Both the position numbers and the translations under genes were made by a program. The notes under the pieces were generated by a model. It saw only the letters and a list, made by a program, of their open reading frames with translations. It had not been told where the DNA came from and made no database searches. Of a stretch of DNA of 52,142 nucleotides, positions 2,023 to 25,355 are shown piece after piece. Source of the stretch: an uncultured Gammaproteobacteria bacterium (lineage in GTDB: Bacteria > Patescibacteriota > Patescibacteriia > UBA1558 > S5-K13). How positions within the stretch are numbered: the first letter of the stretch is position 1; the number at the start of each line of letters is the position of its first letter. The stretch lies in the NCBI GenBank assembly GCA_964386425.1, contig CAYLQO010000003.1, positions 1-52,142 on the forward strand, read 5' to 3'.

Positions 2023-3099
2023 ATGCCAGACGAAAATACAAGTAATTCACTTGGCAATTTTTCTGATTTAGATGATGAAATTTTAATAAAACAAAATGGT
2101 TCTTTTAAGATTTTTTCTCATGGAAATTTATCTGATTTTAATATAGAAATACAACCTGAAAAATCAACTACTGCTGTTTTAGACACTGGTTTAGAAGAAA
2201 AAGCATTGCAACCTCCACCTCCAATGATTTTTGATAAAAAAGGATCTGAATTTTATTTTGATATTGATGATAAAGATGAGATTGCAAAACATAAACAAAA
2301 ATTAGAAAAACTAGATTCTCAGATAAAACAGTATAGTTTGAAAAAAATTGTAGAGCGCATTATTGAATCAAATCAAATTGAATTAATTCCACAGCTTGAA
2401 GCGAAGTTTTATAATATAATTTTTTCATTTTTAAAACACACTAGAGAAAAATTGGATATTGAAGAATTGTTGTCAAAAAGAATTGTTGACCTGGGACTTG
2501 GTTTAGAAAAAGGCAAGGTAAGTAGTATCATAAAACTACTTACAGAGATAAGAGATAAAATCGATGAAACTCATGGCAGTATTTTAAATGATCTAAATGT
2601 TCAAGAATTTGTAAAGCAAAATGAATCACAAAATAAAGAATATATTTCAAATTTAGATCCAAGACAGCAAATACAAATTAAACCACTTAATTCAAATATT
2701 CCTTTCATAAGAAGAGATATAGCTCGTTCAAACACAACAAGAACCAAGATGAGTGATGTAAAACAAAAGCCAAGAATTATAAGTCCAGTAGAGGAATTAG
2801 GAGAGCTAAATATAACAATTTTTAGAAGAATATCAAACAATCCAGTTGAGGCGACACAACGTATAATGGATATAATAAATGCATTTGGAAAAGAATCAAT
2901 ACTTAAAAAAGCAATGGCAATAAAAAATTGGAGAAAAAGTGAAATTTATAAAATTTATTTAATGCTTGGTAGAGAAAGTATAGAAAAAAATCTACCAGTT
3001 AGTAAATTAATAGAACAAAAAGCCATTGCAAATGAGAAAACAATAACCCTAGACGAATTTCAGGCAATTTCAGACCTTAATAAAAAGATTAAATTTTAA
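2023..3099 (+). CDS. Hypothetical protein, first gene of the T4SS-like cluster
   Basis: 358-aa ORF with an acidic, probably disordered N-half and a lysine-rich helical C-half. The stop lies 2 nt before the next start. No recognisable catalytic motif. Confidence 0.55.
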   Translation: MPDENTSNSLGNFSDLDDEILIKQNGSFKIFSHGNLSDFNIEIQPEKSTTAVLDTGLEEKALQPPPPMIFDKKGSEFYFDIDDKDEIAKHKQKLEKLDSQIKQYSLKKIVERIIESNQIELIPQLEAKFYNIIFSFLKHTREKLDIEELLSKRIVDLGLGLEKGKVSSIIKLLTEIRDKIDETHGSILNDLNVQEFVKQNESQNKEYISNLDPRQQIQIKPLNSNIPFIRRDIARSNTTRTKMSDVKQKPRIISPVEELGELNITIFRRISNNPVEATQRIMDIINAFGKESILKKAMAIKNWRKSEIYKIYLMLGRESIEKNLPVSKLIEQKAIANEKTITLDEFQAISDLNKKIKF

Positions 3100-3101
3100 A
3101 T

Positions 3102-3560
3102 ATGAATAATTTTATTGTTCCACAATTTATTGATGTAGAGGATAGAATATTTGGTCCTGTAACAATAAGACAATTTTTAATTTGTACTGCTGGGGGTCTT
3201 TTAATTTTTGTAGCTTTTAAACTAAGTGATTTTGGTTTATTTATATTTCAAGCAATAATTATAATTCCGCTCACAATAATTTTTGCATTTGTAAGGATAA
3301 ATGGAAAAAGTTTTCATCATTTTTTAATGGATGTTCTAGTTTATTTTTTTAAAGTTCCACGTATTGCTGTTTGGCAGAAAAAAGAAATAGTAGTAAAGAA
3401 AAAAGTAAAAGAAGTTGTTAAAAAAGATAATTATAGCTTTGAACAAAAATTTTTACCAAAAGCTCGATTAAATGAAGTGTCTTTAATAGTCGATACAGGT
3501 GGAGCTTATATTGGTGAAGAAGAAAATATAAATAATTCAAATTTAAAAGCCGACAGCTAA
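3102..3560 (+). CDS. PrgI-family / VirB3-like small membrane protein
   Basis: N-terminus VPQFIDVEDRIFGPVTIRQFLICTAGGLLIF is followed by two hydrophobic helices. This is the pattern typical of PrgI-family proteins that precede VirB4 in Gram-positive-type T4SS. Assigned by eye only. Confidence 0.6.
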   Translation: MNNFIVPQFIDVEDRIFGPVTIRQFLICTAGGLLIFVAFKLSDFGLFIFQAIIIIPLTIIFAFVRINGKSFHHFLMDVLVYFFKVPRIAVWQKKEIVVKKKVKEVVKKDNYSFEQKFLPKARLNEVSLIVDTGGAYIGEEENINNSNLKADS

Positions 3561-3564
3561 TAAT

Positions 3565-4236
3565 ATGAATAACCAAAAATTACCAACAAAAAAATCAACT
3601 CAAGAAATATTAAGCATTTCAGATATTGTTGATGATATGATTATATTAAAAGATGGAACAGTAAGAGCAGTGCTTATGGTTTCTTCTATTAATTTTGCTC
3701 TGAAAAATCAAGATGAGCAAGAAAGTATAATAGATGGATATTATTCATTTTTAAATTCTTTAGCATATCCACTACAAATAGTAGTTCAGTCAAGAAATAT
3801 TGATATTGATTCTTATATTGAAAAATTAGAGAAATTATCAAAACAACAAACAAATGAACTACTACGAATGCAAACTTTAGATTATTTACAGTTTATAAAA
3901 GAACTTCTTGAACTTCAGGCAATCATGACAAAGAAGTTTTATGTTGTTGTTCCGTATTCTGCAGTATCAAATAAAAAAAGAAATTTTTTGAGTCGGGTTT
4001 CGGATCTTTTTTCTGCATCAGGAGAAATTGTAATGAAGAAAAAACAAATGGCCGAGTATAGAGATCAGCTATATAGAAGAGTTGCTCAGGTTCAGGATGG
4101 ACTAGCGTCAATAAGTTTACAAGCTGTGTCACTCGATACAACAAGTCTAATAGAACTTTATTACAATTCATATAATCCAGAAATTTCCAAAAGTCAAAAA
4201 TTAAAAGATATAGATAAATTACAAATAGAAAAATAA
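3565..4236 (+). CDS. VirB4 N-terminal-domain-like protein without an ATPase domain
   Basis: ILSISDIVDDMIILKDGTVRAVLMVSSINFALKNQDEQESIIDGYYSFLNSLAYPLQIVVQSRNIDIDSYI resembles the N-terminal region of Gram-positive VirB4/TcpF-type ATPases. No Walker motifs are present. Confidence 0.5.
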   Translation: MNNQKLPTKKSTQEILSISDIVDDMIILKDGTVRAVLMVSSINFALKNQDEQESIIDGYYSFLNSLAYPLQIVVQSRNIDIDSYIEKLEKLSKQQTNELLRMQTLDYLQFIKELLELQAIMTKKFYVVVPYSAVSNKKRNFLSRVSDLFSASGEIVMKKKQMAEYRDQLYRRVAQVQDGLASISLQAVSLDTTSLIELYYNSYNPEISKSQKLKDIDKLQIEK

Positions 4237-4255
4237 TAATTTTATTTAATATACA

Positions 4256-6121
4256 ATGTTTAAAACAAAATCAATAGAAAAACAATTAAAAACAAAAGTA
4301 GAGGAACCAAAAGAAAAACTTCCTAATATTGAAGAGCAGAAGGAGCTTCTTGAGGCGGAAAAAATTTATAGAAGAGGTGCTGTTTCTATAAAAGACCTTA
4401 TCTCCCCATCAGCCTATAAAGTTGAAAGTTCATTTTTAAGATTAAATGATAAGTTTTTAAGTACTCTTTACATTGTTACATATCCTAGATTTATAAATAT
4501 TGGATGGTTTGCACCTGTAATTAATTATTCTATTCCACTAGATTTAGCAGTTTATTATTATCCAGTTGACTCACCAAAAATTTTAAAAAAATTAAAAAAT
4601 AAGGTTGGAAATATAGAAGCTCAATTATCTCTAGATGCCGAGAAAGGTACTCCACGTGACCCACAACTCGAAACAGCATTATCAGACATAGAACAATTAC
4701 GAGATAATTTAACACAAGGTGTCGAAAAATTTTTCCAAATGGGTTTTTATGTAACTTTGTATGCTGATAACCCAGAAGACCTTGATAAAAGATTAGAAAC
4801 AGTTGAAAATATTTTTGGTTCAAAATTAATTTTTACCAAACGTTCTCTTTTTACTTCAAAACAAGGATTTAATTCTACGCTTCCAATGGGAAATGATGAA
4901 TTATATATTGTAAATAATATGAATTCATCTCCAGCTTCTGCATCTTTTCCATTTATTTCTTCAGAATTAACTGGCAATGATGGAATTTTATATGGAATAA
5001 ATAGACATAATAATAGTTTAATACTTTTTGATAGGTTTTCATTACAAAATGCAAATTATGTTGTTTTTGCAACATCAGGAGCTGGAAAATCATATGCAGT
5101 TAAATTAGAAGTGCTTCGTAGTATGATGATGGGAACTGATATTATAATTATTGATCCAGAAAAAGAATATGAACATTTGTGTGATGCAGTTGGCGGAACC
5201 TATATAAATTTATCTTTGAACTCTGAAAGTAAATTAAATCCATTTGATCTTCCTCGTGGACTTACAAAAGAAATGAGAGCCGGAGATATAATTAGAAGTG
5301 CAATTATAACTCTCAAGGGTTTGGTAAGGCTTATGGTTGGAGAACTTTCACATTTAGAGGACTCAATTGTTGATAGGGCTCTTATGGAAACATATGCAAA
5401 AAAAGATATAACCGTTGATAGTGATATAGAAAATATTGAATCACCACTTATGAAAGACTTAGAAGAAGTTTTATCTGGAATCCAGGGTGGTGATGATCTA
5501 GCTCAAAGAATAAAAAAATATACAGAAGGAACATTTTCAGGATTATTTAATAGCCCAACAAATGTAAATATGAGTAATCAATTAGTTGTTTTCAGTGTTA
5601 GAGATCTAGAAGATGAACTTCGTCCTATAGCAATTTATACAATTATAAATTATATATGGAACGTTGTAAGATCCAACATGAAGAAGAGAATATTAATTAT
5701 TGATGAGGCATGGTGGTTAATGCAACATGAAGATAGTGCTAAATTTATATTTGCACTTGTTAAAAGATGTAGAAAATATTATTTAGGAGTAACAACAATA
5801 ACCCAGGATGTTAATGATTTTTTAATGTCACCATATGGGCAGGCAATAGTTACAAATTCAGCTTTGCAACTATTATTAAAACAATCTCCAGCATCAATTG
5901 ATGTAATACAGAAAACATTTTTATTAACTCAAGAAGAAAAATATTTATTACTTCAGGGAAAAGTTGGTCAGGGAATTTTCTTTGCAGGAAGTAAACATGT
6001 CGCAATTCAAATAGAAGCATCTTATACAGAAGATCAGCTAATAACTTCAGACCCAAGGCAGTTACTTGAAATTGAAGCAGCAAAAAAAGAATTTGAGGAG
6101 TCAAATAAAAATAAAAATTAA
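4256..6121 (+). CDS. virB4: VirB4/TrbE/PrgJ-family T4SS ATPase
   Basis: Walker A FATSGAGKSYAV and Walker B RILIIDEAWWL. The N-domain pattern is LSTLYIVTYPRFINIGWFAPVINYSIPLDLAVYYYP and the C-terminal motif is GVTTITQDVNDF. Confidence 0.85.
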   Translation: MFKTKSIEKQLKTKVEEPKEKLPNIEEQKELLEAEKIYRRGAVSIKDLISPSAYKVESSFLRLNDKFLSTLYIVTYPRFINIGWFAPVINYSIPLDLAVYYYPVDSPKILKKLKNKVGNIEAQLSLDAEKGTPRDPQLETALSDIEQLRDNLTQGVEKFFQMGFYVTLYADNPEDLDKRLETVENIFGSKLIFTKRSLFTSKQGFNSTLPMGNDELYIVNNMNSSPASASFPFISSELTGNDGILYGINRHNNSLILFDRFSLQNANYVVFATSGAGKSYAVKLEVLRSMMMGTDIIIIDPEKEYEHLCDAVGGTYINLSLNSESKLNPFDLPRGLTKEMRAGDIIRSAIITLKGLVRLMVGELSHLEDSIVDRALMETYAKKDITVDSDIENIESPLMKDLEEVLSGIQGGDDLAQRIKKYTEGTFSGLFNSPTNVNMSNQLVVFSVRDLEDELRPIAIYTIINYIWNVVRSNMKKRILIIDEAWWLMQHEDSAKFIFALVKRCRKYYLGVTTITQDVNDFLMSPYGQAIVTNSALQLLLKQSPASIDVIQKTFLLTQEEKYLLLQGKVGQGIFFAGSKHVAIQIEASYTEDQLITSDPRQLLEIEAAKKEFEESNKNKN

Positions 6122-6139
6122 TTTTTTAAATAAAAATAT

Positions 6140-6703
6140 ATGACAATAAACAAAAAACTGATTATTATTTTAGTTATTATTATAATAATTGTTTTATTTG
6201 TGTTCGGGTTTTTATTTTTTATGAAAAATAAAAAACAAGAAATTCAGATTCCAATAGAGGAAAATAAAACTCAACCAATGACAGAAGTAAAAAAAGAAAA
6301 TTTTAATTCTTTAGAATTTGAAAAGCAAGCAAAAATAGATGAGAATTCGCAAATTATAACAACAGCAAGAAATTTCATAGAGCGTTATGGTTCTTGGTCA
6401 AATCATACAGAAAATTTTTATGAGCTTATTTCTCCAATGATAACTGACCGTATGTATAATCAAGCAAAAAATTATATATCTAACAATCCAAATTTTTTAG
6501 ATGACAAAAATTTTTATGGAATTACAACCAAACTTCTAAATGCGGAAATTCTAGAATCAAGTACTAATTCAGCAAAAGTATCTTTGCAATTACAACAAAC
6601 AGAATCTAAAAATGGAACAGAAAATACTTTTTATAAGCAAGCAGAATTATCACTTATTTTTACAAATAATGAATGGTTAGTTGATTCTGTAACATGGAAA
6701 TAA
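6140..6703 (+). CDS. Bitopic membrane protein; possible VirB8/TcpC-like (NTF2-like) component
   Basis: Single N-terminal TM (LIIILVIIIIIVLFVFGFLFF) followed by a ~130-aa ectodomain (ARNFIERYGSWSN...SLIFTNNEWLVDSVTW). The VirB8-like call rests on topology and size only. Confidence 0.4.
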   Translation: MTINKKLIIILVIIIIIVLFVFGFLFFMKNKKQEIQIPIEENKTQPMTEVKKENFNSLEFEKQAKIDENSQIITTARNFIERYGSWSNHTENFYELISPMITDRMYNQAKNYISNNPNFLDDKNFYGITTKLLNAEILESSTNSAKVSLQLQQTESKNGTENTFYKQAELSLIFTNNEWLVDSVTWK

Positions 6704-6707
6704 TATT

Positions 6708-7598
6708 ATGGCAGCAAAGATATCATCAGCTATAAGCAGTGGTCTAAAGACGGTTAGAAACACAGCAAAAGAAGGTGTTTCGTTTATACAAGACGCTTCT
6801 TTACCAGATGATATGAGAGAGGCAGGCTCACAGACAAGACAAGAGCAAAATCAAGCACAAGAAATGAGCACAACAGGCCAGTGGAGCAAAACGCAGGTTA
6901 ACAAAAATAGACAGGCACAATTAAATAATAATGAGAATTTAGCTTTAAGCAATACTGGTGAATTAAACAGAAAAACTCCAAATGAAGGTGAAAAAGAAGT
7001 AGATGATAAAAATCAGACACCAGAGCAAAACGAAAATATACCAAAGAATTTAGGTCCAATAGGAGAAGATAGTAGAAGAAGAAGGCTAGCACAAAAATTT
7101 CAAAATAGTAAATTAGGAAAGGGTATTCAGAATGTAAAAACAAAAGTAGCTAATCATAAAATAATGGCAAAGAAAGCAACTAGACTGGGAACATTTGCAG
7201 CATATAAGTTTTCTTGGCAATATTTAATACCTAGTTTTGGATTAACGTGGTTTTATCTAGCTTTTCATTTTTTAGCAAAATATATAATGGGAGGTCCTGG
7301 GTTTTGTCACTTTGTTTCAGTAACAAATCCAGCCGTTGCCACAAAAGAAATAATAGAAGGCAAGGACAAAATGGATTTTGGTGCTATGATAGCTTTTGTG
7401 CTTGTTGGCGTAATAATTATAACAATTTTAGCATTTGCATTTACAATGCTCTTTATAATAGTTTATGCAATGACAGAGCCACTAGCTGCTGCAAAAGAGT
7501 ATATTGAAATAATTGGTTTGTTAATAAAAGAGATTATGACGGGTGTTGTAAAAGTAATAGCTGGGGCATTAAGTTGGATTGCTGGACTATTTACTTAA
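6708..7598 (+). CDS. Polytopic membrane protein with Q/N/E-rich N-terminal half; possible VirB6/TrbL analogue
   Basis: The C-terminal half has about 4 hydrophobic helices (YLIPSFGLTWFYLAFHFL, GAMIAFVLVGVIIITILAFAFTMLFIIVYAM, VVKVIAGALSWIAGLF). The assignment is positional only. Confidence 0.4.
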   Translation: MAAKISSAISSGLKTVRNTAKEGVSFIQDASLPDDMREAGSQTRQEQNQAQEMSTTGQWSKTQVNKNRQAQLNNNENLALSNTGELNRKTPNEGEKEVDDKNQTPEQNENIPKNLGPIGEDSRRRRLAQKFQNSKLGKGIQNVKTKVANHKIMAKKATRLGTFAAYKFSWQYLIPSFGLTWFYLAFHFLAKYIMGGPGFCHFVSVTNPAVATKEIIEGKDKMDFGAMIAFVLVGVIIITILAFAFTMLFIIVYAMTEPLAAAKEYIEIIGLLIKEIMTGVVKVIAGALSWIAGLFT

Positions 7599-7639
7599 AA
7601 ATTTTAGTTTATATATTTTATAAAATAAATAATTTAAAA

Positions 7640-8890
7640 ATGCCAGAAAATACAAAAAAAATAATTTTAATATTTTTATTTATAATTATTAGCATTGGAC
7701 TTGCTTTTCTTATTTACTCTGTTTTTTTTGCTAGGAAAATAGAACCAGTCGTAAATCAAACTGGAAATGAATTAATTCCAGGAGAATTTCCTGAGGCTGG
7801 TTCAGGCGGAGCACAGGTAATAGAGCCAGGTGGAGGAGAAACCGAGCAACCAAATACGCAAACACAGACAGATACAGAAATTCCTAGCCAAGGAGAGGTT
7901 ATCAATAATTCAACGCAACTTACAAACAAAAATATTTCTGGTATAAATGATTATAGTAAAATAAATGGAGGAATAGTCTATTATGATAATGTAAATCAAG
8001 GTTTTTATAAAATAGGAGAAGACGGCAGGGTTGTAAGATTGTCTGATAGAAAATTTTATTCTGTTACAAATGCAACTTTTTCACCAACAAAAAATCAGGC
8101 AATACTAGAGTATCCAGACAAAAGAAAAGTTTTATATGATTTTGATAAAGATGAGTTTATAGCAAGATTTCCAGAACAGACTCAAGATTTCGCATTTTCT
8201 GAAACCGGAGATAAATTATCTTATAAATGGATTGATTACTATGAAGATCAAAACTATCTAGTAACCTCAAATCCAGATGCAAGTAATTTTCAATTTATAA
8301 GACCAATAGCAGACCAGGCAAAAAATATTAATAATGTTTGGAGTCCAGATGGAGAAGTTATGGCAACATTTAGAAAGCAAGCTGATTTAGAAAGACAAGA
8401 AATATATTTTATAAATGAAAATAGTAAAAATTTAAGATCTTTGCTTGTTGATGGATTTAATTTTGAAGGTGTCTGGAATACAAAAGGAGATAAGCTTTTG
8501 TATAATGTAACTGAACCAAGAAGAGATTTTAAGCCAGTATTATGGATTGCAAATGGTCAGGGGGATGGCCTTGGTTATGGAAAAGCATCTCTTGGTATAA
8601 ATACATGGGTTGATAAATGTTCTTTTAGTAATTCAGATTCTAATACTGTTTATTGTGCTGTTCCAGATTCTTTGCCAACTGGAGCAGGACTTAATCCATC
8701 TATTGCAAGTGGAAGCACATATTCAATTTATAAAATAAACATAGATAATGGAAATCAAGAATTAATTGCTCAACCTACAGTAAATAATAATAGAGTTTCA
8801 ATAGATAAAATATATACAAGTCAAAATGATTCTCAGATTTTTTATATAGATGCAATAACTGGATATTTATACACTATTAATTTACAATAA
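7640..8890 (+). CDS. Membrane-anchored TolB-like beta-propeller protein
   Basis: Start preferred at ATG 7640 (MPENTKKIILIFLFIIISIGLAFLIYSVFF signal-anchor) over the track start 7574, which overlaps the previous gene. Repeated SPTKNQ/SETGDKL/SPDGEV blade-like motifs are present. Confidence 0.55.
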   Translation: MPENTKKIILIFLFIIISIGLAFLIYSVFFARKIEPVVNQTGNELIPGEFPEAGSGGAQVIEPGGGETEQPNTQTQTDTEIPSQGEVINNSTQLTNKNISGINDYSKINGGIVYYDNVNQGFYKIGEDGRVVRLSDRKFYSVTNATFSPTKNQAILEYPDKRKVLYDFDKDEFIARFPEQTQDFAFSETGDKLSYKWIDYYEDQNYLVTSNPDASNFQFIRPIADQAKNINNVWSPDGEVMATFRKQADLERQEIYFINENSKNLRSLLVDGFNFEGVWNTKGDKLLYNVTEPRRDFKPVLWIANGQGDGLGYGKASLGINTWVDKCSFSNSDSNTVYCAVPDSLPTGAGLNPSIASGSTYSIYKINIDNGNQELIAQPTVNNNRVSIDKIYTSQNDSQIFYIDAITGYLYTINLQ

Positions 8891-8894
8891 TTTC

Positions 8895-8933
8895 ATCCCG
8901 CCAAGCTATACTTGGGCTGGATAAATAAAAAAA
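8895..8933 (+). other. GC-clamp hairpin (ATCCCG..GGAT) plus ATAAATAAAAA box ending at a start codon
   Basis: atcccgccaag-ctata-cttgggctggat, then aaataaaaaaa, then ATG 8934. Related copies are at 21508, 29997 and 31747. Confidence 0.5.
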
Positions 8934-9596
8934 ATGACAAAACATGATAAAAGAATTTCCATTGTTGTAATAATTTTAGTTTTAGTTGGAGTTAGTTTTT
9001 TGTTTTATAATTTATTTAATTTTTATAAAATTATAAAAATAAAAAATGAAAAACAAATTGTTGAAAGCATAACTGATGAAAAATATGTCCTTTCGTCATT
9101 TGTAAATGATCCAATAAAAGGTGCAAAAAATGCACAAGTAAGTATTTATTTATTTACTGATTATGAAACTAACGGAACGAAAGATATTTTAGGTGCCATA
9201 GATGAAATATTAAAAAAATATCCAAGTCAGGTTAATTTAGTTTGGAAAGATTTGCCACTTGCTATAAATATTTATTCAAAAAGTTCAGCCCTTGCATCAC
9301 GTTGTGCTCTCGAACAGAATAAATACTGGGAATACAACAGTGAATTATTAAATACAGGAGAAGATTTTTCACTTGATTTATACAAAAGTATTTCCGAGAA
9401 ATTAAAAATGGATACAAATAAATTTTTAAATTGTTATAATTCTAAGAAATATATAGAAGATATAGATAATAATATAATGGAAGCTTATGTTTTAGGGATA
9501 GAAGAGACTCCTGCTATTTTTATAAATCAGCAGAAATTTGAGGGGCAAATAACAGTCGAAAATTTAGAAAATATTATTAAATCAATGATGAAATGA
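8934..9596 (+). CDS. DsbA-like thioredoxin-fold protein lacking the CXXC active site
   Basis: Paralogous to the ORF at 30025. Shared segments include C..EQ.K[YF]W, KF..CY.SKKY and the TP..F[IV]N cis-Pro loop. However, FADFNCSYC is replaced by FTDYETNGT. An N-terminal TM anchor is present. Confidence 0.65.
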   Translation: MTKHDKRISIVVIILVLVGVSFLFYNLFNFYKIIKIKNEKQIVESITDEKYVLSSFVNDPIKGAKNAQVSIYLFTDYETNGTKDILGAIDEILKKYPSQVNLVWKDLPLAINIYSKSSALASRCALEQNKYWEYNSELLNTGEDFSLDLYKSISEKLKMDTNKFLNCYNSKKYIEDIDNNIMEAYVLGIEETPAIFINQQKFEGQITVENLENIIKSMMK

Positions 9597-11077
9597 TTTT
9601 AGAAATGCATTATATTAAATATTCTAAAAAAGTATTTTTATTTTGTATATTATTTATTTTTTTGTTTTTTAATTTCAAAAATGCCATAGCTGTTTGTCCA
9701 GAGGGTTATGAGCTTGTACCAGTTCAATATCGATGGTCAGAATATAATTATGATTTGAATGATTCTTTTAGTGATGTATCTTCTTATCCAACACAAATAT
9801 GTTATAAAAAGAGACCACCATGTGCAACTCCAGATACATGTCAAACACCAACCAACAACAATATGATGGTTGTAAATCCATGTCCTACGGAAACTGGAGA
9901 TCTTAAACAAAATTGGTGTCCCAATGATACGGTTTGTTGTTTTAAGGAAGAACAAGAGCAAATAGTAGATGGACAATTGGATATATCTGGTACTAATGTA
10001 TCCAGTAAAGATCAACAACTAGCATCTACTACTATCAAGTTTAAACCAGAAGTTGGAATTCCAGGTTTTTTAGAAGAAAAAAATGTTAGTGGATTTTTAT
10101 TTGGGGATTTTCTTACAGCATTATTTCGTTATTTAATATATCTATCTGGAGTATTTGCTGTAATTATAATAATAGCATCTGGATTTCAGTGGGTTTTAGC
10201 TGGTGGAAATAAAAGTAAAATAGAGAGAGCAAAATCAAGATTAAAAAATTCTTTAATAGGTTTTGTTTTGTGTTCCTCAAGTGTTTTAATTTTAAGTACT
10301 ATAAATTTAGATTTAATAAATATCAGACCATTGGATATCAAATATATTATTCCAATTCCCATAGTAGAGGTTAATAGGTTTGAAATGGCGTCTACTCCTT
10401 TGAAATCTGGTCCAGGTGGTAGTCATTTATTTAGTCAAGCATTGATAGATGGAATAAAAAAGCATTCAGCGACCTCTGGTATAGATCCTTGTGTTTTTTA
10501 TGCAGTTATACATCAAGAATCTGGTGGTAATGTGGGGGCATTTGGTAATGATTCTGCTGTGGCAAATTGTCAAATTATAGCTAGAAGAGCACATATATGT
10601 AACTTGTATCCAAGTTGTTGTCCAAATTTTATAAGTGGATCAACAAATAAAAGTTATGAGGCCTGTACAAATTGTACAAGCTATGTAACTAATAAAAGTA
10701 TAAGCGGTGTTAGTAAGGCTAATTGGAAAAATTATTTGACAAAAAGGGGTTATACATTTGGTTTGGGTTTAACCCAAATAACCTATTTTTCGGGATCTAG
10801 TCAATTATGTAATGGAAATAATGGATTTAAATATCAAGGGATTTGCGTTAACTTCGACGATTTATTTACTATAGATGGTTCTCTTAGTGCCTTTGCCTAT
10901 GCTTGGCCAAAATCATATTGCAAAGATGGTAATTTGTTGATGGGTTTTAGAAGATATGCGGATGGTAGTGGTACAAGTAATTGGGGTATTACTACTGGCG
11001 ATAAAAAATATGTTCGCTATACAAAATGTAAAGACTTGGGTTTTGAATATATAGCCAGTAAAGGTATTCCTAAATAA
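9593..11077 (+). CDS. Cys-rich head + T4SS pilin-like (VirB2/TrbC-type) TM hairpin + lytic transglycosylase (SLT/VirB1-like) fusion protein
   Basis: Signal peptide ends in NFKNAIA. The head (CPEGY...VCCF) carries 9 Cys. The pilin-like segment is YLIYLSGVFAVIIIIASGFQWVLAGGNKSKIERAKSRLKNSLIGFVL. The SLT catalytic context is FYAVIHQESGGNVGAFGND. An alternative start is ATG 9605. Confidence 0.65.
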   Translation: MILEMHYIKYSKKVFLFCILFIFLFFNFKNAIAVCPEGYELVPVQYRWSEYNYDLNDSFSDVSSYPTQICYKKRPPCATPDTCQTPTNNNMMVVNPCPTETGDLKQNWCPNDTVCCFKEEQEQIVDGQLDISGTNVSSKDQQLASTTIKFKPEVGIPGFLEEKNVSGFLFGDFLTALFRYLIYLSGVFAVIIIIASGFQWVLAGGNKSKIERAKSRLKNSLIGFVLCSSSVLILSTINLDLINIRPLDIKYIIPIPIVEVNRFEMASTPLKSGPGGSHLFSQALIDGIKKHSATSGIDPCVFYAVIHQESGGNVGAFGNDSAVANCQIIARRAHICNLYPSCCPNFISGSTNKSYEACTNCTSYVTNKSISGVSKANWKNYLTKRGYTFGLGLTQITYFSGSSQLCNGNNGFKYQGICVNFDDLFTIDGSLSAFAYAWPKSYCKDGNLLMGFRRYADGSGTSNWGITTGDKKYVRYTKCKDLGFEYIASKGIPK

Positions 11078-11082
11078 TTTTT

Positions 11083-12420
11083 ATGAAAACAATTTACTCA
11101 TGTTCAAAATGTGGAGCACAATTTCCCAAATGGGCTGGGAAGTGTATTGAGTGTGGTGCTTGGGGAACACTGGACAAAGAAACCATAATTGAAGATGAAA
11201 GAAAAAATAAAACAGAAAATTTAAAAGATGTAAAAATTGATTTCATAGATTTATCTAAAATAAAAAACGAACAGGTTAAAAAAATAAAAACAGGATTTTC
11301 TTGCTTTGATAAAGTAATTGGCGGAGGACTAGTTCCTTCTTCTTTAGTTTTACTTGGTGGAGAACCTGGAATTGGAAAATCCACTATAATTTCTCAAATC
11401 ATAAACAAAAATTTAAATACTTTATATGTTTCAGGAGAAGAAAATGCAAATTCAGTTAAATCTCGTTTTGACAGACTGGGGATTAGCAGCAATTCTGTAA
11501 AATTTTTAGCAGAAAATAGTATAGAGACAATTTTAGCTGGAGTTATAAAAATTAAACCCGAATTTTTAATTATTGATTCAATTCAAACACTTTATACTGG
11601 TGATGTAGAAGGTGATCCAGGTGGAATTGCACAAGTGCGTGCTTGTACAGTAAAAATTATGGAAATCGCCAGAAAGTTTAATATTGCAACTTTAATAATA
11701 AGTCATGTAAATAAATCAGGGGATTTAGCAGGACCTAAGACAATGGAGCACTTAGTTGATTGTGTGATTTATTTAGAAGGAGATCGGTTACACAGATTTA
11801 GAATTTTAAAATGTATTAAAAACAGATTTGGCTCGACTGATGAAGCAGCAATACTGGAGATGACAAAAAGCGGATTTAAAGAAGTAATAAACCCATCAAA
11901 AATTTATTTATCATCACTTTCTCCTGAAGAGTCTGGTACAGCAATTACTTCTATTATAGAAGGAAATCAGGTTTTGATGTTAGAACTTCAGGCACTTGTT
12001 AGTAAAACTAATTTTGGATATCCAAAGCGTACAGCAAGTGGTTATGATCAAAAAAGATTAGAACTTCTAATAGCAGTGCTTCAATCAAAATTAAATTTGA
12101 ATTTAAATTTATACGATGTTTATATTAATTTAACTGGTGGATTCAAAGTATCAGATCGTGCACTTGATTTAGCAGTTGCAATGGCAATTTATTCATCTTA
12201 TGAAAATAAAAAAATAATGAGTAGTTCAGTATTTTTTGGTGAGGTGGGATTAAGCGGAGAAATAAGACAAATTCCAAAAACAAAAGAGCGAATAAAAGAA
12301 GCAATTAATTTAGGATTTAAAAATATAATTATTCCGAGCTTTGATAAAAATGTAGAAATAAAAGGCGCGAAGTTAAATTGTATAAAAGATATAAAAGAAC
12401 TTAAAAAATTTTTAATTTAG
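11083..12420 (+). CDS. radA: DNA repair protein RadA/Sms
   Basis: Zn finger CSKCGAQFPKWAGKCIECGAWGT, Walker A GGEPGIGKST, the KNRFG motif, and a Lon-like C-terminal domain (GEVGLSGEIR). Confidence 0.95.
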   Translation: MKTIYSCSKCGAQFPKWAGKCIECGAWGTLDKETIIEDERKNKTENLKDVKIDFIDLSKIKNEQVKKIKTGFSCFDKVIGGGLVPSSLVLLGGEPGIGKSTIISQIINKNLNTLYVSGEENANSVKSRFDRLGISSNSVKFLAENSIETILAGVIKIKPEFLIIDSIQTLYTGDVEGDPGGIAQVRACTVKIMEIARKFNIATLIISHVNKSGDLAGPKTMEHLVDCVIYLEGDRLHRFRILKCIKNRFGSTDEAAILEMTKSGFKEVINPSKIYLSSLSPEESGTAITSIIEGNQVLMLELQALVSKTNFGYPKRTASGYDQKRLELLIAVLQSKLNLNLNLYDVYINLTGGFKVSDRALDLAVAMAIYSSYENKKIMSSSVFFGEVGLSGEIRQIPKTKERIKEAINLGFKNIIIPSFDKNVEIKGAKLNCIKDIKELKKFLI

Positions 12421-12517: not shown

Positions 12518-14581
12518 TTATTCTAAATGTATATCAGAAGAAAGTATTTCTACTTCTTTTTTTATTTCAGGGAATTTTTCTAGTCCTTTCTCAAAAACAT
12601 ATTGAGCCCAGACATTGCATTTTTTTATTAATTCTAAATCAGATAAGTCAGCAATTTTTATACCCGTCATAAATCCAGATTGTTTAATTCCGTATAAATC
12701 TCCACTTCCACGGAATTTTAAATCAAATTCTGCGAGTTCAAATCCATCATCTGTTTTTGTAAGTATTTCAAGTCGTTTTTTGGTCTTTTCTGAATTGCTT
12801 TCAGAAAATAAAAAGCAAAATGACTGGTGTTCACCACGGCCAACGCGACCACGAAATTGGTGAAGCGATGCAAGCCCGAATCTATCAGCACCTTCAACCA
12901 TCATTATAGTTGCATTTGGAAAGTCTATTCCAACTTCAATTACAGAAGTGGAGACAAGTATTTTTGTTTCATTTAGAGAAAAGCTTTTTAAAACTTTTTG
13001 TTTTTCTGCTTCTTTCATTTTGCCATGCAAAAATCCGATTTTTAAATTTGGGAAAATTTCTGTGTTTAATTTTTCGTATTCACTAAGTACTGATTTTACT
13101 CCTAATTTATCTGATTCATTTATAAGAGGACACACTACAAAAACTTGTCTACCAGCGTTTATTTGATTATAAATAAATTCATAAGCTTTTGTTCTGTTAT
13201 GCGCGGATACAAATTTTGTAATGATTTTTTTCCGTCCAACTGGTTTTTGTAAAATTCTAGAAATATCCAAGTCACCATAGATTGTAAGAGCAAGTGATCT
13301 TGGAATTGGAGTTGCTGTCATGGACAAGAAATGTGGACTAATGTCTGACTTTTTGGTTAATTCTTGACGTTGCTTTACACCGAATCTGTGTTGTTCATCA
13401 ATAACAATAAGTCCAATATTTTTAAACTCTATATCCTTCTGAATTAAAGAATGAGTTCCTATTATAAAATCAGATTTTTTAACAAATTTAAAGACTTCAT
13501 TTTTTGTTAGTTTTTGGGCTAATTCTTTTTTGCCATTAAATAATAATCTATCAGAATTTGTAAGAAGTAAAATATTTATATTGTAGTCCTTGAAAAATTT
13601 CACAGCATTTTCAAAGTGTTGTTTTGCTAAAATTTGAGTAGGGGACATCAAAATTGTCTGAAATTTATTTAAAATCACATTGTAAGCACAGATAAAAGAT
13701 ACAATTGTTTTTCCGCTTCCAACATCACCTTCGAGAAGTCGGTTCATTGGAATTTTTTCATTAATATTTTGCAATATCTGCCAAGTTGATTTTCTTTGGT
13801 CTTCTGTTAATTCAAATGGAATTTTCGTTACAAATTCTTTTATTTGTTTTTCTTTAAATTTAATAACAGGCGCTGATAATTCAATATTTTGTTTTTTAAT
13901 ATATTTTGATAAGCATGACAGCAAAAATATTTCATCAAATGATAATCTTTTTTTAGCGAGTTCCAGTTTTTCATAATTATCTGGAAAATGAATTTGCTTT
14001 AAAGATTCTTGTAAATTTAATAATTTTTCACATTCAATAATTTCATTTGGTAATTTTTCTTTTACCAAATTTAAACAACTTAGTGATTGTTTTATTACGT
14101 ATCTTAATTGTTTTTGTGATAAATGTTCTGTTGATGGATATATTGGAATAATTCTTGCAGTGTGCGATGTATCTCTGTCAGTTTTTTCATAATTTGGATT
14201 TACAAGTGATGGTCCAAGCAGTGATTTTTTAACAACTCCTGAAACATATATTTCATCTCCAATTTGAAGTGTGTTTTTTATATATGGTTGATTAAACCAA
14301 ACAATTTGAATTTGACCAGAATTATCCTCTAAAAGCATCTCGGTTATGTTCATTCTTTTCCTGGGAGATCTTTTGTTGTTAAGTAGTATGATTTTACCTT
14401 TTATTGTGGCTGATTCCTCATTTATAAGTTCATTTATCTGTTTTAAATGTGAAAAATCTTCATATCTAAATGGATAATAAAAAATAGCATCAGACATTGT
14501 ATTTAATCCGATTTTTTCTAGTTTTTTATAGATTTTCGGACCTATTCCGTAGATTTTATCTAGAGTTGTGTTTATATTCAT
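12518..14581 (-). CDS. recG: ATP-dependent DNA helicase RecG
   Basis: Wedge/OB N-domain, Walker A GDVGSGKT, DEQHRFG box, and QFRGRVGRG motif VI. Confidence 0.9.
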   Translation of the reverse strand: MNINTTLDKIYGIGPKIYKKLEKIGLNTMSDAIFYYPFRYEDFSHLKQINELINEESATIKGKIILLNNKRSPRKRMNITEMLLEDNSGQIQIVWFNQPYIKNTLQIGDEIYVSGVVKKSLLGPSLVNPNYEKTDRDTSHTARIIPIYPSTEHLSQKQLRYVIKQSLSCLNLVKEKLPNEIIECEKLLNLQESLKQIHFPDNYEKLELAKKRLSFDEIFLLSCLSKYIKKQNIELSAPVIKFKEKQIKEFVTKIPFELTEDQRKSTWQILQNINEKIPMNRLLEGDVGSGKTIVSFICAYNVILNKFQTILMSPTQILAKQHFENAVKFFKDYNINILLLTNSDRLLFNGKKELAQKLTKNEVFKFVKKSDFIIGTHSLIQKDIEFKNIGLIVIDEQHRFGVKQRQELTKKSDISPHFLSMTATPIPRSLALTIYGDLDISRILQKPVGRKKIITKFVSAHNRTKAYEFIYNQINAGRQVFVVCPLINESDKLGVKSVLSEYEKLNTEIFPNLKIGFLHGKMKEAEKQKVLKSFSLNETKILVSTSVIEVGIDFPNATIMMVEGADRFGLASLHQFRGRVGRGEHQSFCFLFSESNSEKTKKRLEILTKTDDGFELAEFDLKFRGSGDLYGIKQSGFMTGIKIADLSDLELIKKCNVWAQYVFEKGLEKFPEIKKEVEILSSDIHLE

Positions 14582-14696: not shown

Positions 14697-17600
14697 ATGA
14701 AGTTTAAAAGTAAATCTTTATTTTTTTTAACCAGTTTTTTTATAATTGGATTTTTTATAGTACCAAAAATTTCTAGCGCATCTCTTCCGTGGACTCAATA
14801 CGCAGGTAATCCCGTCTTAAGTCAAACAACTAATAGTGGCTTTTCTTCTGTTGTAAAAGATGGATCTTTATACCATATGTATTATGGTGGAACCTCAATA
14901 AATCACGCAACATCAACAGATGGTTTGTCTTGGAATGCGAATCCCTCTAATCCACTGGAATTAACTGGGAGCGTGCCAATGGTTTGGAAAGAGGGTTCAA
15001 TTTGGTATATGTTATTTAGATCATTTGATGGTTCTTTAAATTCTGTTGCTTTAGCAACTTCTACCAATGGAATAAATTGGAATGAATATTCTTCAAATCC
15101 AGTATTAGAAGAAACATCTGGTTGGGCTTCTGGTGTCGAGGCTTGGGGAATAATAAAAGTAGAGTCAGTTTATTATATGTTTTATAGTGATTGGGAAGAA
15201 ACTAGAAAAATAGGAATTGCAACATCAACAGATCTTATAAATTGGAATAAAGATCCAAATAATCCAATATTTACGGGTGGAAGATTCTGTCCATTCCCAT
15301 TTAAATATGGTAATTATTATTATTTAATAGTTCCTCATTATACATCCGGTACAGATTATTCTGAATTAGAATTATATAGAGACACTAGTCCAACATTTTA
15401 TTCGTCCAGTAGACAATATATGGGTGTTGTAATAAGTCCTGGTACGAGTGGGGAGTGGAATGATACTGATCAAGATACGGCATTTGTTTTAACAGATGAT
15501 ATAGAAAGAGATAGTTTTGAAATTACAAACAATCAATTGTGGGTTTATTTTGCTGGATCTCCTACGAATGTCCCATCTACATGGTATACAGGATTAATAA
15601 TAGAACCAAATATACAAAGTGCTATGCCACAAAAAACAGGGGCAACATGGTCTGTTGTTGGTTCCAAGGGAATGTCTTATGGTGTTGTATATAATACGAC
15701 AATAGATATTGATAGTAATGATACGCCTTATGTCGCATATCAAGATTGGGATAAAAGTGGAAAAGCTACAGTTAAAAAGTATAACGGATCATCTTGGGTG
15801 ACAATTGGAACTGAGGGATTTGCTGGAAACGCTGCTAATTCAACTCAGGTATTTTTGCATGATGATAATCCGTATTTAATATACAGAGATAGTCTTGCAA
15901 ATGGAGCAAAAACAACATTAATGAAATACACAGACTCTACAAATTGGTACGTAGCAGGAACGGCTACTTTTTCAGATGCAAGAGCTTTATTGCCAAGTCT
16001 ATATGTGTATGATGATGGGACAGCAACTGGCACACCATACGTAGGTTATTTTAATACTTCTGATAATATTAATGGTAAGGTAATAGTTAAAAAATTAGTA
16101 AATAGTGTGTGGCAAACAGTTGGTGTTGAAGTGACGGCAAATACAGCAACATATTTTTATGTATCTTTGGTTGTTGATAGTGGCGGTACGCCATATGTCG
16201 CATTTTATGACGGCTATAATTCAAATAAATTAAGCGTTAAAAAATATAACGGATCTTCTTGGATAAGTGTTGGTAGCGCTGGTTTTTCTGCTGGACAAGC
16301 AGATTACATAAGTTTAGCACTAGATAATAATGATGTTCCATATGTAGCATATAGAGATGGCGGAACAGCTAACAAAGCGACTGTAATGAAATATAACGGA
16401 TCTTCTTGGGAAAATGTTGGTAGCGCTGGTTTTTCTGCTGGACAAGCAGATTATACATCTCTTGCGATTGATAACAATAATATTCCATACGTAGCATTTA
16501 AAGATGCTACAAATGCAAACAAAATAACAGTTATGAAATATACAAATAGTGGGGTTTCTGGTTGGTCTATTGTTGGTAGCGCTGGTTTTTCTGATGGACA
16601 GGCAGACTATACTTGGCTTGACATAGATAGTGAAAATGTGCCTTATGTCGCATTTAAAGATGTGGCTAATGCTAATAAAACAACCGTTATGAAATATGAT
16701 GGAGTTGACATAACAGCGCCTTTTATAACTGGTTTATCAAACGACACCACACCAACACAATCAAAGACGTGGACCTGGGATAGTGATGATCCCACTGCAA
16801 CGTATAGATATGTAGTAAATCAAAATGCAACACATAATTTTACAGTTGAAGCATATGGATCAACTAAAACAACAATTCAAGATAGTGGAACAGGTACATA
16901 TTATTTACACGTTCAAGCAAAAGATACAGCTGACAATACTAGTACATCAACAGTTTATGCTGTACTTGATAATACTCCCGTAGATAATACTCCACCAACT
17001 ATTACTGGTTTATCAAACGACACCACACCAACACAATCAAAGACATGGACCTGGGATAGTGATGATCCTACTGCAACATATAGATATGTAGTAAATCAAA
17101 ATGCAACACATAATTTTACAGTTGAAGCATATGGATCAACTAAAACAACAATTCAAGATAGTGGAACAGGTACATATTATTTACACGTTCAAGCAAAAGA
17201 TACAGCTGACAATACTAGTACATCAACAGTTTATGCTGTACTTGATAATACTCCCGTAGATAATACTCCACCAACTATTACTGGTTTATCAAACGACACC
17301 ACACCAACACAATCAAAGACATGGACCTGGGATAGTGATGATCCTACTGCAACATATAGATATGTAGTAAATCAAAATGCAACACATAATTTTACAGATG
17401 AAGTATATGGAACAACAACTTCAACCACTCAATCATCTGGCAATGGGACATATTATTTACACGTTCAAGCAAAAGACGAAGCAGATAATACTAGTAATAC
17501 CTCAGTATCAGCAATATTAGACAATATGGCACCCATTATTTCGGGATTATCAGATGACAACACTTCAACAGTTAGCAAAAATTGGATTTGGTCATCCGAT

Positions 17601-18533
17601 GATGAAAATGCGGTATATAGATATCATGTTACTACAACAGATTCGTTTGTTTTTAGTGATGAAGAATATTCTACAACAACATCTACAACACAATCTAGTG
17701 GTGATGGAATATATTATTTATACGTACAAGCAAAAGATATGGCTGATAATATAAGTACCTCAACAGTTTCTGCTATTCTTGATAATACAGCACCAACCAT
17801 AACTATCCTAGGTTCTAATCCAACATCAATATTTCTAGAAGAAACATATACTGATTCTGGTGCAACAGCAACAGATAATATAGATGAAAACATAGCCGTT
17901 ACAACATCAGGAACTGTAAACACATCTCAAGCTGGTACATATACTATTACATATTCAGCAATAGATATAGCAGGAAATATAAGTACTTCAACAAGAATTG
18001 TTAATGTAATAAATCGCCCCAGTTCAGCAATACCATTATTTATACTAGAATCAATGAATGATCAGAATCAAAACAATCAAAACCAAGAAGAGTATAATAA
18101 TGAAGAAGAGAGACAGGATAATAATCAAACATTGGAATATAATAATGCTATTTTTACGAATGGCTCATTTATTAAAACAAATAATGCTTCAACAGTATAT
18201 TTTATAGATACAGAAAAAAATATGAGACATGTTTATCCAAACGAAGCAGTGTGGAGATCATATTTTGGCAAAGACTTCTCATTCGTAGAAACTAAAAATA
18301 ATATTAATTTTTCTGATTATACGTTAGGAAAAAATGTAACTTTTAAAAAGGGGACATTATTTAAAATTCCATCCGTATCGAGAGTTTATTTAACGGATAA
18401 TAATGGTATAATACATTGGATTAAGACAGAAGCAAAAGCAATAGAATTATATGGTAAGAATTGGAATAAATTAGTATATGATCTAAGTGAAGCATTCTTT
18501 GGTGATTATATTGAGGGTAGTGAAGTTGAATAA
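14697..18533 (+). CDS. Large secreted multi-domain surface protein: five-bladed-propeller glycosidase-like N-domain, ~57-aa propeller-like repeats, four Ig-like ~90-aa repeats, an Ig-like (DUF5011-type) domain, an N/Q-rich linker, and two C-terminal wall-binding-like modules
   Basis: Signal peptide MKFKSKSLFFLTSFFIIGFFIVPKISSA. The N-domain has repeated ATSTDG[LI].W...NP motifs. The middle region has repeated YNGSSW..VGSAGFSAGQADY.SLA.DNN..PYVA units. Tandem TWTWDSDDPTATYRY...YYLHVQAKD.ADN units follow. Confidence 0.75.
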   Translation: MKFKSKSLFFLTSFFIIGFFIVPKISSASLPWTQYAGNPVLSQTTNSGFSSVVKDGSLYHMYYGGTSINHATSTDGLSWNANPSNPLELTGSVPMVWKEGSIWYMLFRSFDGSLNSVALATSTNGINWNEYSSNPVLEETSGWASGVEAWGIIKVESVYYMFYSDWEETRKIGIATSTDLINWNKDPNNPIFTGGRFCPFPFKYGNYYYLIVPHYTSGTDYSELELYRDTSPTFYSSSRQYMGVVISPGTSGEWNDTDQDTAFVLTDDIERDSFEITNNQLWVYFAGSPTNVPSTWYTGLIIEPNIQSAMPQKTGATWSVVGSKGMSYGVVYNTTIDIDSNDTPYVAYQDWDKSGKATVKKYNGSSWVTIGTEGFAGNAANSTQVFLHDDNPYLIYRDSLANGAKTTLMKYTDSTNWYVAGTATFSDARALLPSLYVYDDGTATGTPYVGYFNTSDNINGKVIVKKLVNSVWQTVGVEVTANTATYFYVSLVVDSGGTPYVAFYDGYNSNKLSVKKYNGSSWISVGSAGFSAGQADYISLALDNNDVPYVAYRDGGTANKATVMKYNGSSWENVGSAGFSAGQADYTSLAIDNNNIPYVAFKDATNANKITVMKYTNSGVSGWSIVGSAGFSDGQADYTWLDIDSENVPYVAFKDVANANKTTVMKYDGVDITAPFITGLSNDTTPTQSKTWTWDSDDPTATYRYVVNQNATHNFTVEAYGSTKTTIQDSGTGTYYLHVQAKDTADNTSTSTVYAVLDNTPVDNTPPTITGLSNDTTPTQSKTWTWDSDDPTATYRYVVNQNATHNFTVEAYGSTKTTIQDSGTGTYYLHVQAKDTADNTSTSTVYAVLDNTPVDNTPPTITGLSNDTTPTQSKTWTWDSDDPTATYRYVVNQNATHNFTDEVYGTTTSTTQSSGNGTYYLHVQAKDEADNTSNTSVSAILDNMAPIISGLSDDNTSTVSKNWIWSSDDENAVYRYHVTTTDSFVFSDEEYSTTTSTTQSSGDGIYYLYVQAKDMADNISTSTVSAILDNTAPTITILGSNPTSIFLEETYTDSGATATDNIDENIAVTTSGTVNTSQAGTYTITYSAIDIAGNISTSTRIVNVINRPSSAIPLFILESMNDQNQNNQNQEEYNNEEERQDNNQTLEYNNAIFTNGSFIKTNNASTVYFIDTEKNMRHVYPNEAVWRSYFGKDFSFVETKNNINFSDYTLGKNVTFKKGTLFKIPSVSRVYLTDNNGIIHWIKTEAKAIELYGKNWNKLVYDLSEAFFGDYIEGSEVE
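16728..17540 (+). repeat. In-frame tandem repeat, 276-bp period (92 aa), three copies; a fourth diverged copy follows to about 17800
   Basis: Unit starts (actggtttatcaaacgacacc) are at 16728, 17004 and 17280. I found only three differences between copies 1 and 2 by eye, all synonymous. Copy 3 appears identical to copy 2 over roughly its first 115 bp by my reading, then diverges. Confidence 0.9.
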
Positions 18534-24088: not shown

Positions 24089-24091
24089 ATT

Positions 24092-24787: not shown

Positions 24788-24804
24788 TGATATAAATTTT
24801 AGTT

Positions 24805-25353: not shown

Positions 25354-25355
25354 TT

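Follow-up and report, generated by a model that had tools for sequence, protein, structure and literature searches.

Which machine is encoded by a set of type IV secretion system (T4SS) genes that lies amid housekeeping DNA, and what might it move? The locus is carried by a 52,142-nucleotide stretch, called here the window (assembly GCA_964386425.1, contig CAYLQO010000003.1, positions 1 to 52,142 of the forward strand), and comprises nine open reading frames (ORFs) between positions 2023 and 11077. All nine lie on the + strand where the first-pass annotation had placed them and are tightly packed, with gaps of 2–43 nt and two short overlaps. Specifically, the spacings from ORF1 to ORF6 are 2, 4, 19, 18 and 4 nt, the ORF6/ORF7 junction is either a 25-nt overlap (with a TTG start at 7574) or a 41-nt gap (with the ATG at 7640), ORF7 and ORF8 are separated by 43 nt, and ORF8 and ORF9 overlap by 4 nt. 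The cluster, from an ultrasmall bacterium of class ABY1, is very probably a Patescibacteria T4SS that derives from monoderm conjugation machinery (mating-pair formation type FATA, MPF-FATA) and is no longer conjugative. It is a further example of a system described in 2023–2025, for which the annotations are useful, and not a new system. This interpretation is sound but not novel, because earlier publications contain both functional ideas as well as the link with radA and recG (PMC10633639, PMC11665869, PMC12102498).

The cytoplasmic-membrane core consists of a VirB3/PrgI-like protein (ORF2), a split VirB4 (ORF3 and ORF4) and a VirB8-like protein (ORF5). ORF2 (3102–3560, +; 152 aa) is a small membrane protein in which a transmembrane (TM) scan places a hydrophobic hairpin at about residues 20–64. 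It reaches the Pfam family PrgI at E 2.1e-5 and 25.4 bits, just below the cut-off of 27, and TcpE at E 0.002, while PrgI is matched by 67 of its 69 orthologues, with a best E of 4.8e-12. ORF3 (3565–4236, +; 223 aa) is a TrsD-like, ATPase-less VirB4 N-terminal domain that matches the NCBIfam model TrsD at E 3.6e-9 and is recorded as PF26593 (TraC-like) on the source contig. It aligns to positions 99–244 of the 894-position mycoplasma VirB4 model (VirB4_plasma), and ORF4 (4256–6121, +; 621 aa) aligns to positions 287–893 of the same model; since the two proteins cover complementary parts of it, they form a split VirB4. That ORF4 is a VirB4 ATPase of monoderm type (MPF-FATA, CD1110) is shown by 357.6 bits against NCBIfam NF045971 (conju_CD1110; curated cut-off 325), E 1.8e-30 against Pfam P-loop_TraG, and directly legible Walker A (ATSGAGKSY) and Walker B (ILIIDEAW) motifs.

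The assignment of ORF5 (6140–6703, +; 187 aa, bitopic) comes from structure prediction. At the sequence level no assignment is obtained, and PrgL is found by a profile of 63 orthologues at no better than E 8.8. The AlphaFold model, built from 14 sequences (pLDDT 81.4), comprises an N-terminal TM helix, a linker and an NTF2-like domain, and its best Foldseek match in the PDB is the PrgL VirB8 domain (7aed, E 2.8e-5), with VirB8-family matches at E 3e-5 to 1e-4. Further PDB matches are TcpC (3ub1), CagV (6iqt), Rickettsia VirB8 (4o3v), TraH of pIP501 (5aiw) and TrwG of R388. By its predicted model, ORF5 thus has a VirB8-like fold, which raises the VirB8-like topology of the first-pass annotation to the level of a fold; the earlier calls of a PrgI/VirB3-like protein, an ATPase-less VirB4-N-like protein and a VirB4 ATPase with both Walker motifs are likewise upheld by the matches given above.

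Conservation of the gene order was examined from ORF4, which was used as a VirB4 query against one genome per species of the Genome Taxonomy Database (GTDB) and returned 427 loci with relatives, of which the best 80 were taken for synteny; gene presence was scored by tblastn of the window proteins against these 80 loci. The best 80 of the 427 relatives are 66–91% identical in VirB4 and belong to the candidate phyla radiation (CPR) or to unclassified metagenome-assembled genomes (MAGs). The named ones are assigned to Falkowbacteria, Komeilibacteria, Kerfeldbacteria, Magasanikbacteria, the 'Parcubacteria group' and the 'Patescibacteria group', that is, to the class ABY1. To our knowledge, no ABY1 member has been cultivated. 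The order ORF1, ORF2, ORF3, VirB4 is shared by 67 of the 68 loci that have sufficient upstream flank, which argues against a chance arrangement, and the TrsD-like gene is present in essentially all 80 relatives. For 39 of the loci, 8 kb or more of sequence is available downstream of virB4; these contain ORF5 (30 loci), the thioredoxin-fold gene (25), the propeller gene (18), radA (18) and an ORF9 homologue (15); these tblastn counts are lower bounds, because several cluster proteins evolve fast. Plasmid-encoded VirB4 proteins are at best 28–36% identical to ORF4 and all come from Bacillota or Actinomycetota. The reading as a Gram-positive-style minimal T4SS in a CPR genome is thereby borne out by the component assignments together with the synteny, in which the neighbours are conserved.

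The record title 'uncultured Gammaproteobacteria bacterium' is borne by many MAGs among the closest relatives (binchicken, SRP co-assemblies), and their gene content and VirB4 are clearly those of Patescibacteria; the 'Gammaproteobacteria' titles look like a labelling problem in the records.

The surroundings of the cluster are chromosomal. A Pfam scan of every window ORF of at least 100 aa and of a 74-aa ORF at 712–936, which left a few ORFs without a match, detects neither a relaxase nor a VirD4-type coupling protein, and likewise no VirB11, integrase or replication gene; no window ORF matches the TcpA-type/VirD4 coupling-protein family. The source contig (L001), found by exact protein look-up, adds about 5 kb upstream, which were judged from recorded Pfam annotations and bring the contig sequence covered to about 57 kb. 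These 5 kb carry folD, SHMT, a WG-repeat protein, a radical-SAM enzyme and a methyltransferase, and no relaxase, coupling protein, VirB11, integrase or replication gene is annotated among them. The remainder of the window is housekeeping and envelope DNA, with rubrerythrin, desulfoferrodoxin, two DNA glycosylases, a prepilin peptidase with pseudopilins, ligA, gatA, a second DsbA-like gene, lgt, an M23 peptidase, a MacB-type ABC exporter, L20, IF3, smpB, tmRNA and tRNA-Asp, and the housekeeping genes that flank the cluster are conserved in relatives. Moreover, the GC content of the cluster (0.26–0.30) equals that of the rest of the window and reveals no compositional anomaly. The cluster is chromosomal and is not a conjugative element or an integrative and conjugative element (ICE). 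The earlier statement to that effect, including the absence of transfer genes from the window, therefore stands, and the check beyond the window, for which coupling protein, relaxase and integrase had been named, extends it to about 57 kb of contig.

The envelope partners of the core are the polytopic ORF6, the anchored propeller ORF7, the DsbA-like ORF8 and ORF9, in which a pilin hairpin is combined with a domain of the wall-hydrolase type. ORF6 (6708–7598, +; 296 aa) has no assignment. It begins with about 155 residues of low-complexity hydrophilic sequence, which are followed in the TM scan by 3–4 TM helices, and it has no match in Pfam, NCBIfam or the PDB. With tblastn, ORF6 itself is picked up in none but the closest relatives; short polytopic proteins encoded at the same position in more distant relatives can be aligned to its C-terminal TM region (hhalign 93%, E 2.6e-7). 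The ORF6 family is fast-evolving, small and polytopic, and always lies directly after the VirB8-like gene. A relation to divergent pilin-type polytopic proteins was also considered and rejected (hhalign probability below 1%). The earlier suggestion of a VirB6 analogue finds no support, in that no VirB6, TrbL or PrgH model or structure is matched; ORF6 is polytopic, with only 3–4 TM helices, and its position is conserved.

Many ABY1 relatives (L017, L019, L021, L037, L054, L057, L061 and L078) carry a second kind of large pilin-domain protein 1–2 kb downstream of virB4. These proteins have about 330–480 aa and 4–6 TM helices, are encoded between the VirB8-like and propeller genes, and have no counterpart in the window. 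They might represent the missing VirB6-like channel component in those ABY1 genomes.

ORF7 is called from an ATG on the source contig (7640–8890, +; 416 aa), and an alternative TTG start at 7574 (+) would give 438 aa. The protein carries an N-terminal membrane anchor, a predicted extracytoplasmic propeller of the PD40/TolB-like type and two invariant cysteines. The window protein itself has no Pfam match. At the family level, a profile of 25 orthologues reaches TolB (7mx5) at E 0.035, and beta-propeller Pfam families are matched by 10 of the 25 and PD40 by 6 of the 25 (best E 9.7e-8), so that the membrane-anchored TolB-like propeller of the first-pass annotation holds for the family. ORF8 (8934–9596, +; 220 aa) is a membrane-anchored protein with a DsbA-like thioredoxin fold that matches Thioredoxin_4 at E 4.4e-17 and DSBA at E 8e-8 in Pfam. 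As had been noted, it lacks CxxC; the alignment places YETNGT at that site. The motif is kept in 33 of 36 cluster-linked ORF8-type proteins from other contigs and is fully lost only in ORF8 and its two closest relatives (L002 and L004), while L079 keeps the first cysteine. Another DsbA-like gene, whose CSYC motif is intact, is located at 30025–30732 (+), directly upstream of lgt (region to 31494), and may make up for the oxidoreductase activity that is missing from ORF8 in this lineage.

ORF9 (9593–11077, +; 494 aa) combines a signal peptide, a Cys-rich N-terminal domain, a VirB2-like pilin hairpin (residues 174–236) and a C-terminal domain of about 250 aa, and contains 21 cysteines in all. 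The hairpin matches Pfam T4SS_pilin (PF18895) at E 1e-8 and 35.6 bits (cut-off 26.6). Scanning the window with a hidden Markov model of the hairpin reveals no further small pilin, which leaves ORF9 with the sole pilin hairpin. The C-terminal domain displays the motifs HQESGG and GLGLTQIT, which are reminiscent of lytic transglycosylases. A single-sequence search with this domain returns EmtA at E 0.4, the comparison with SLT-bearing relatives gives 50% probability in hhalign (E 1.7e-4) with GLGLT aligned otherwise than in the reading by eye, and the PDB profile search yields spurious Cys-rich matches only. For these reasons (EmtA at E 0.4, the 50% match and the discordant GLGLT alignment) the SLT call stays at 'probable'. 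Judged from sequence, the domain is probably a divergent lytic transglycosylase, and ORF9 would in effect be a VirB2–VirB1 fusion; of the pilin and lytic-transglycosylase fusion first proposed, the pilin part is confirmed and the transglycosylase part is probable without being proven. The genomic context is more telling than this weak direct evidence: genes at the ORF9 position in other ABY1 members encode T4SS_pilin with SLT (E 9e-18, 3e-15 and 6.5e-19) or T4SS_pilin with Peptidase_M15_4 (E 5.6e-20), and closer relatives have VanY/M15-like or NlpC/P60-like ends. Given these varied hydrolase ends, the pilin hairpin anchors interchangeable wall hydrolases.

The propeller and pilin-domain genes behave as a unit, in that 18 of the 39 relatives possess both, 21 possess neither and none possesses only one. 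The pilin-domain ORFs in those loci are all large (252–1010 aa). Where the envelope module is absent, the DsbA-like gene follows directly after the VirB8-like gene and is itself followed by radA. The ABY1 T4SS may exist in two forms, a bare membrane core and a core with an all-or-none envelope module, which may comprise the small polytopic protein, the anchored PD40 propeller, the DsbA-like protein and the large pilin-hairpin proteins. With its sole pilin hairpin in the large ORF9, the window holds an ABY1 form without the small-pilin array of Saccharibacteria.

The first gene of the cluster, ORF1 (2023–3099, +; 358 aa), has no assigned function. Its product contains no TM segment and no cysteine, is predicted to be cytoplasmic, and has no match in Pfam, NCBIfam, PHROGs or a PDB sequence-profile search. 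The AlphaFold model (pLDDT 71) has a confident helical C-terminal domain at residues 255–355 and finds no fold match in the PDB with Foldseek (best E 1.1). ORF1 opens the cluster in 67 of 68 relatives, and its profile retrieves 2,529 clusters at 50% identity from a library of 1.84 billion proteins, 1,477 of them at E <= 1e-30; no Pfam domain is present in any of ten long family members. These sequence matches make ORF1 a member of a large family without annotation. A role in place of the coupling protein was considered and set aside, as ORF1 has no P-loop and nothing else speaks for it.

Two readings would deprive the cluster of a common present function. In one, only VirB4 is related to a T4SS and its neighbours are unrelated envelope genes, which would agree with ORF1, ORF6 and ORF7 having no direct family match of their own. 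The independent T4SS assignments of ORF2, ORF3, ORF5 and ORF9, the conserved synteny and the perfect co-occurrence of propeller and pilin-domain genes (18 both, 21 neither, 0 single) rule it out, and the reading is scarcely credible. In the other, the cluster is a decaying, inactive remnant of an integrated conjugative element. The descent of the VirB4 lineage from monoderm conjugation systems (PMC12102498), the loss of the catalytic CXXC of ORF8 and the lack of a recognisable VirB6 speak for such decay; however, none of the nine closely spaced ORFs is disrupted, the order of the four core genes is preserved in 67 of 68 loci, with VirB4 at 66–91% identity, the composition is native to the genome, the CXXC is kept in 33 other ORF8 orthologues, and the Saccharibacteria homologue is essential (PMC10633639). 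A remnant is accordingly very unlikely, and an ICE is rejected on the synteny and the component evidence. A third reading, which keeps the cluster functional, makes it a machine for the import of DNA or nucleotides in the style of ComB of Helicobacter or Ced of Sulfolobales, with the DNA passed to RadA and RecG. It draws on the position of radA (11083–12420, +; identified from sequence and the Pfam annotation of the source contig), which starts 5 nt past ORF9 on the same strand with no intrinsic terminator in the gap and is possibly co-transcribed with the cluster. The next gene is recG (12518–14581, −), convergent with radA and a conserved neighbour. Downstream radA is present in 18 of the 39 relatives whose flank reaches 8 kb or more, often 0–250 nt from the last cluster gene, and comF, recG and radA are common at ABY1 T4SS loci (PMC12102498). 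ComB-like uptake has been proposed for the Saccharibacteria T4SS (PMC11665869), and DNA export is unlikely, as no relaxase or coupling protein was found.

Several observations weigh against import. In Southlakia epibionticum, the only relative amenable to genetics, competence uses ComEC and type IV pili and is dispensable, whereas the T4SS is essential (PMC10633639). The cluster adjoins dnaA and dnaN in other CPR classes (PMC12102498), so that the adjacency to radA looks like a class-specific chromosomal position, and about half of the ABY1 relatives have no radA within 8–10 kb. In addition, the Pfam scan finds neither comF nor comEC in the window, ORF4 reaches only 45.1 bits against CedB (cut-off 700) with no CedA-like match, and Pfam and NCBIfam reveal no ComB-type VirB7, VirB9 or VirB10. 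Import in this form is rather improbable, and the idea is retained at that low level because of the 5-nt spacing to radA and the lack of a terminator. The dispensable competence and essential T4SS of S. epibionticum, the dnaA/dnaN neighbours in other classes and the missing radA in about half of the ABY1 relatives are also the grounds on which export or host manipulation is favoured over DNA import.

On the favoured interpretation, a non-conjugative T4SS of monoderm origin, the VirB4/TrsD ATPase would dock on VirB3 and VirB8 and power the assembly of a channel through a single membrane and the wall. ORF9 would locally open peptidoglycan, either of its own cell or of the host, while ORF7 and ORF8 would aid the folding or holding of the Cys-rich extracellular parts. 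By homology with the essential T4SS of S. epibionticum, the machine would most likely exchange macromolecules with a host cell. As to cargo and direction, the export of proteins or effectors is tentatively preferred at somewhat less than an even chance; an import of DNA, nucleotides or other host material would be unlikely, and adhesion or another role is given the same low standing. More speculatively, the pilin-anchored hydrolases might constitute a working tip that breaches the wall of the host and not that of its own cell, through which host DNA or nucleotides would be imported to a co-transcribed RadA, with ORF1 replacing the coupling protein; such an arrangement would be a long shot.

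Some findings sit uneasily with a complete, working T4SS of this kind. No VirB6 is identified, ORF8 has lost its catalytic cysteines, and for ORF9 the SLT assignment is drawn from motifs together with one profile match of 50% probability. No small free-standing pilin is present, and a pilus may or may not be built. Function is extrapolated from a different class, Saccharimonadia, and essentiality was shown for Southlakia only. Furthermore, VirD4 homologues are located far from virB4 in many CPR genomes (PMC12102498), and a coupling protein could lie outside the ~57 kb.

The published systems place the cluster within a known type. Wang et al. (2023, Cell; PMC10633639) described a Gram-positive-like T4SS in Southlakia epibionticum with pilins and without a recognisable coupling protein or relaxase, and found it to be essential for epibiotic growth by transposon sequencing (Tn-seq). 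Quinonero-Coronel et al. (2025, Microb Genom; PMC12102498) surveyed 3,035 genomes of Patescibacteria, which they treat as monoderm, and detected VirB4 in 2,417, nearly all of it falling into a single clade inside MPF-FATA. TrsD, VirB3/PrgI, VirB6 and pilins occur near virB4, VirB8 homologues are nearly confined to ABY1, relaxases are present in only 103 of the surveyed genomes, and coupling proteins are rarely near virB4 (PMC12102498). A FEMS review of 2025 lists the system as a new T4SS type, and a PNAS perspective of 2024 (PMC11665869) calls its role 'completely unknown' and names effector delivery and ComB-like uptake as possibilities.

The ABY1 arrangement of PMC12102498 is shared in all essentials, namely a VirB4 with a TrsD-like partner, VirB3/PrgI, a VirB8-like protein and a VirB2-like pilin domain near virB4, no nearby relaxase or coupling protein, a chromosomal position, and recG and radA at the locus. 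What the window adds is the VirB8 fold, the split VirB4, the modular pilin–hydrolase fusion, the all-or-none envelope module, the ORF1 family and the lost CXXC; the main text of PMC12102498, as distinct from its supplementary tables, makes no mention of interchangeable pilin–hydrolase fusions, propeller–pilin co-occurrence, the ORF1 family or the loss of the ORF8 CXXC. The Southlakia T4SS (SEML1_0006–0019) shares the monoderm-type subunits, pilin-domain proteins within the cluster, the chromosomal position and the lack of a recognisable coupling protein or relaxase. It differs in having six small, sequence-divergent pilins and peptidase and lysozyme genes downstream of virB4, where the window has one 494-aa pilin–hydrolase fusion. 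Moreover, a genome-wide structure-based annotation, as reported in PMC12102498, gives no VirB8 homologue for Southlakia, in contrast to the VirB8 fold of ORF5.

Conjugative plasmids of Gram-positive bacteria provide a further comparison. pGO1, pSK41 and pIP501 (TrsC–TrsD–TrsE; TraG hydrolase; TraM and TraH) share TrsD, VirB8-like NTF2 proteins and a membrane-anchored SLT-type hydrolase with the window, and the gene order VirB3-like, TrsD-like, VirB4 is common to both. These plasmids possess a relaxase, a coupling protein and oriT and have no pilins, whereas the window locus has none of those three and its hydrolase is anchored by a VirB2-like hairpin. The Prg/Pcf system of pCF10 from Enterococcus faecalis (PrgI, PrgJ, PrgL, PrgK) shares the PrgI family and provides, with the VirB8 domain of PrgL, the best match to ORF5; its coupling protein PcfC, relaxase PcfG, adhesin PrgB and VirB6 (PrgH) have no equivalent found at the window locus. 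The highest-scoring match to ORF4 in the plasmid collection is encoded by an 898-kb replicon of Pontibacillus sp. (NZ_CP062975; L082) and belongs to the CD1110 family (34% identity, 365 bits). Its cluster (NZ_CP062975.1, 351801–361354) contains an Mbov_0395-family pilin-like gene, hypothetical genes, VirB4 and a 1,050-aa peptidoglycan metalloendopeptidase, and adjoins flagellar genes on a replicon typed as non-mobilizable, with no relaxase annotated nearby. It comes from another phylum, keeps pilin and hydrolase as separate genes and has no annotated propeller or DsbA-like gene, and it indicates that relaxase-less, pilin-bearing relatives exist in Firmicutes too. ComB of Helicobacter pylori, finally, is likewise a T4SS without relaxase or coupling protein that is put to a non-conjugative use, but it is a diderm system with VirB7/VirB9/VirB10-type parts (ComB7/B9/B10), none of which has a match in the window.

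A candidate operon promoter is located at 1962–1991 (+; TTACCA, 18 nt, TG-TATAAT), where 69 nt separate ORF1 from the methyltransferase gene. It agrees with the consensus at 10 of 12 positions and has an extended -10 TG. Promoter-like sites are not enriched in the region (80 found versus 89 expected from shuffled sequence), so only the position of this one is suggestive, and the scan for promoters and terminators performs overall no better than on shuffled sequence.

Further features of the window lie outside the cluster. At 22731–26225 (+), 12 kb from the T4SS cluster, a prepilin peptidase (A24) is followed by at least two pseudopilins with N-methyl motifs and two ORFs without a match; type IV pilus or competence-pilus machinery of this kind mediates competence and host adhesion in Saccharibacteria. 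An 862-aa protein at 37054–39642 (+) carries Peptidase_M23, two CBM_4_9 domains and a C-terminal Por_Secre_tail, a sorting domain of type IX secretion that is unexpected in a monoderm CPR bacterium without a type IX secretion system. The region 31774–36210 (+) encodes a 1,478-aa ORF and then a 176-aa ORF, neither with a Pfam match. A 1,278-aa surface protein with Ig-like and macroglobulin-like domains is encoded at 14697–18533 (+), and its gene contains a 276-bp repeat in 2.8 copies of 94% identity (16724–17496) as well as 147- and 156-bp repeats at 16242–16697. At the end of the window, an open frame of at least 745 aa (49907–52142, +) runs past the last position and has the lowest GC content of the window (0.23). 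It comprises two N-terminal copies of a '...SEA.KYCSYSQEYLSLRARQGKLK...' segment, a hydrophobic stretch and a collagen-like run, the latter being a perfect 27-bp tandem repeat (51326–51393) that encodes KGEKGEAGE. The tmRNA (Rfam 91.8 bits) and smpB, at 48256–48646 (−) and 49016–49474 (−), are separated by an AT-rich gap of about 370 nt.

Patescibacteria represent a large share of bacterial diversity, and no T4SS before theirs had been shown to be indispensable to the growth of the cell that carries it. The window provides a clean, fully resolved ABY1 example of this system in which most parts are assigned, and it leaves the published picture unchanged. Within that picture, it offers the field several handles, namely a VirB8-like fold of the sort that sequence searches usually miss, a split VirB4, a swappable hydrolase anchor, an envelope module and the ORF1 family.

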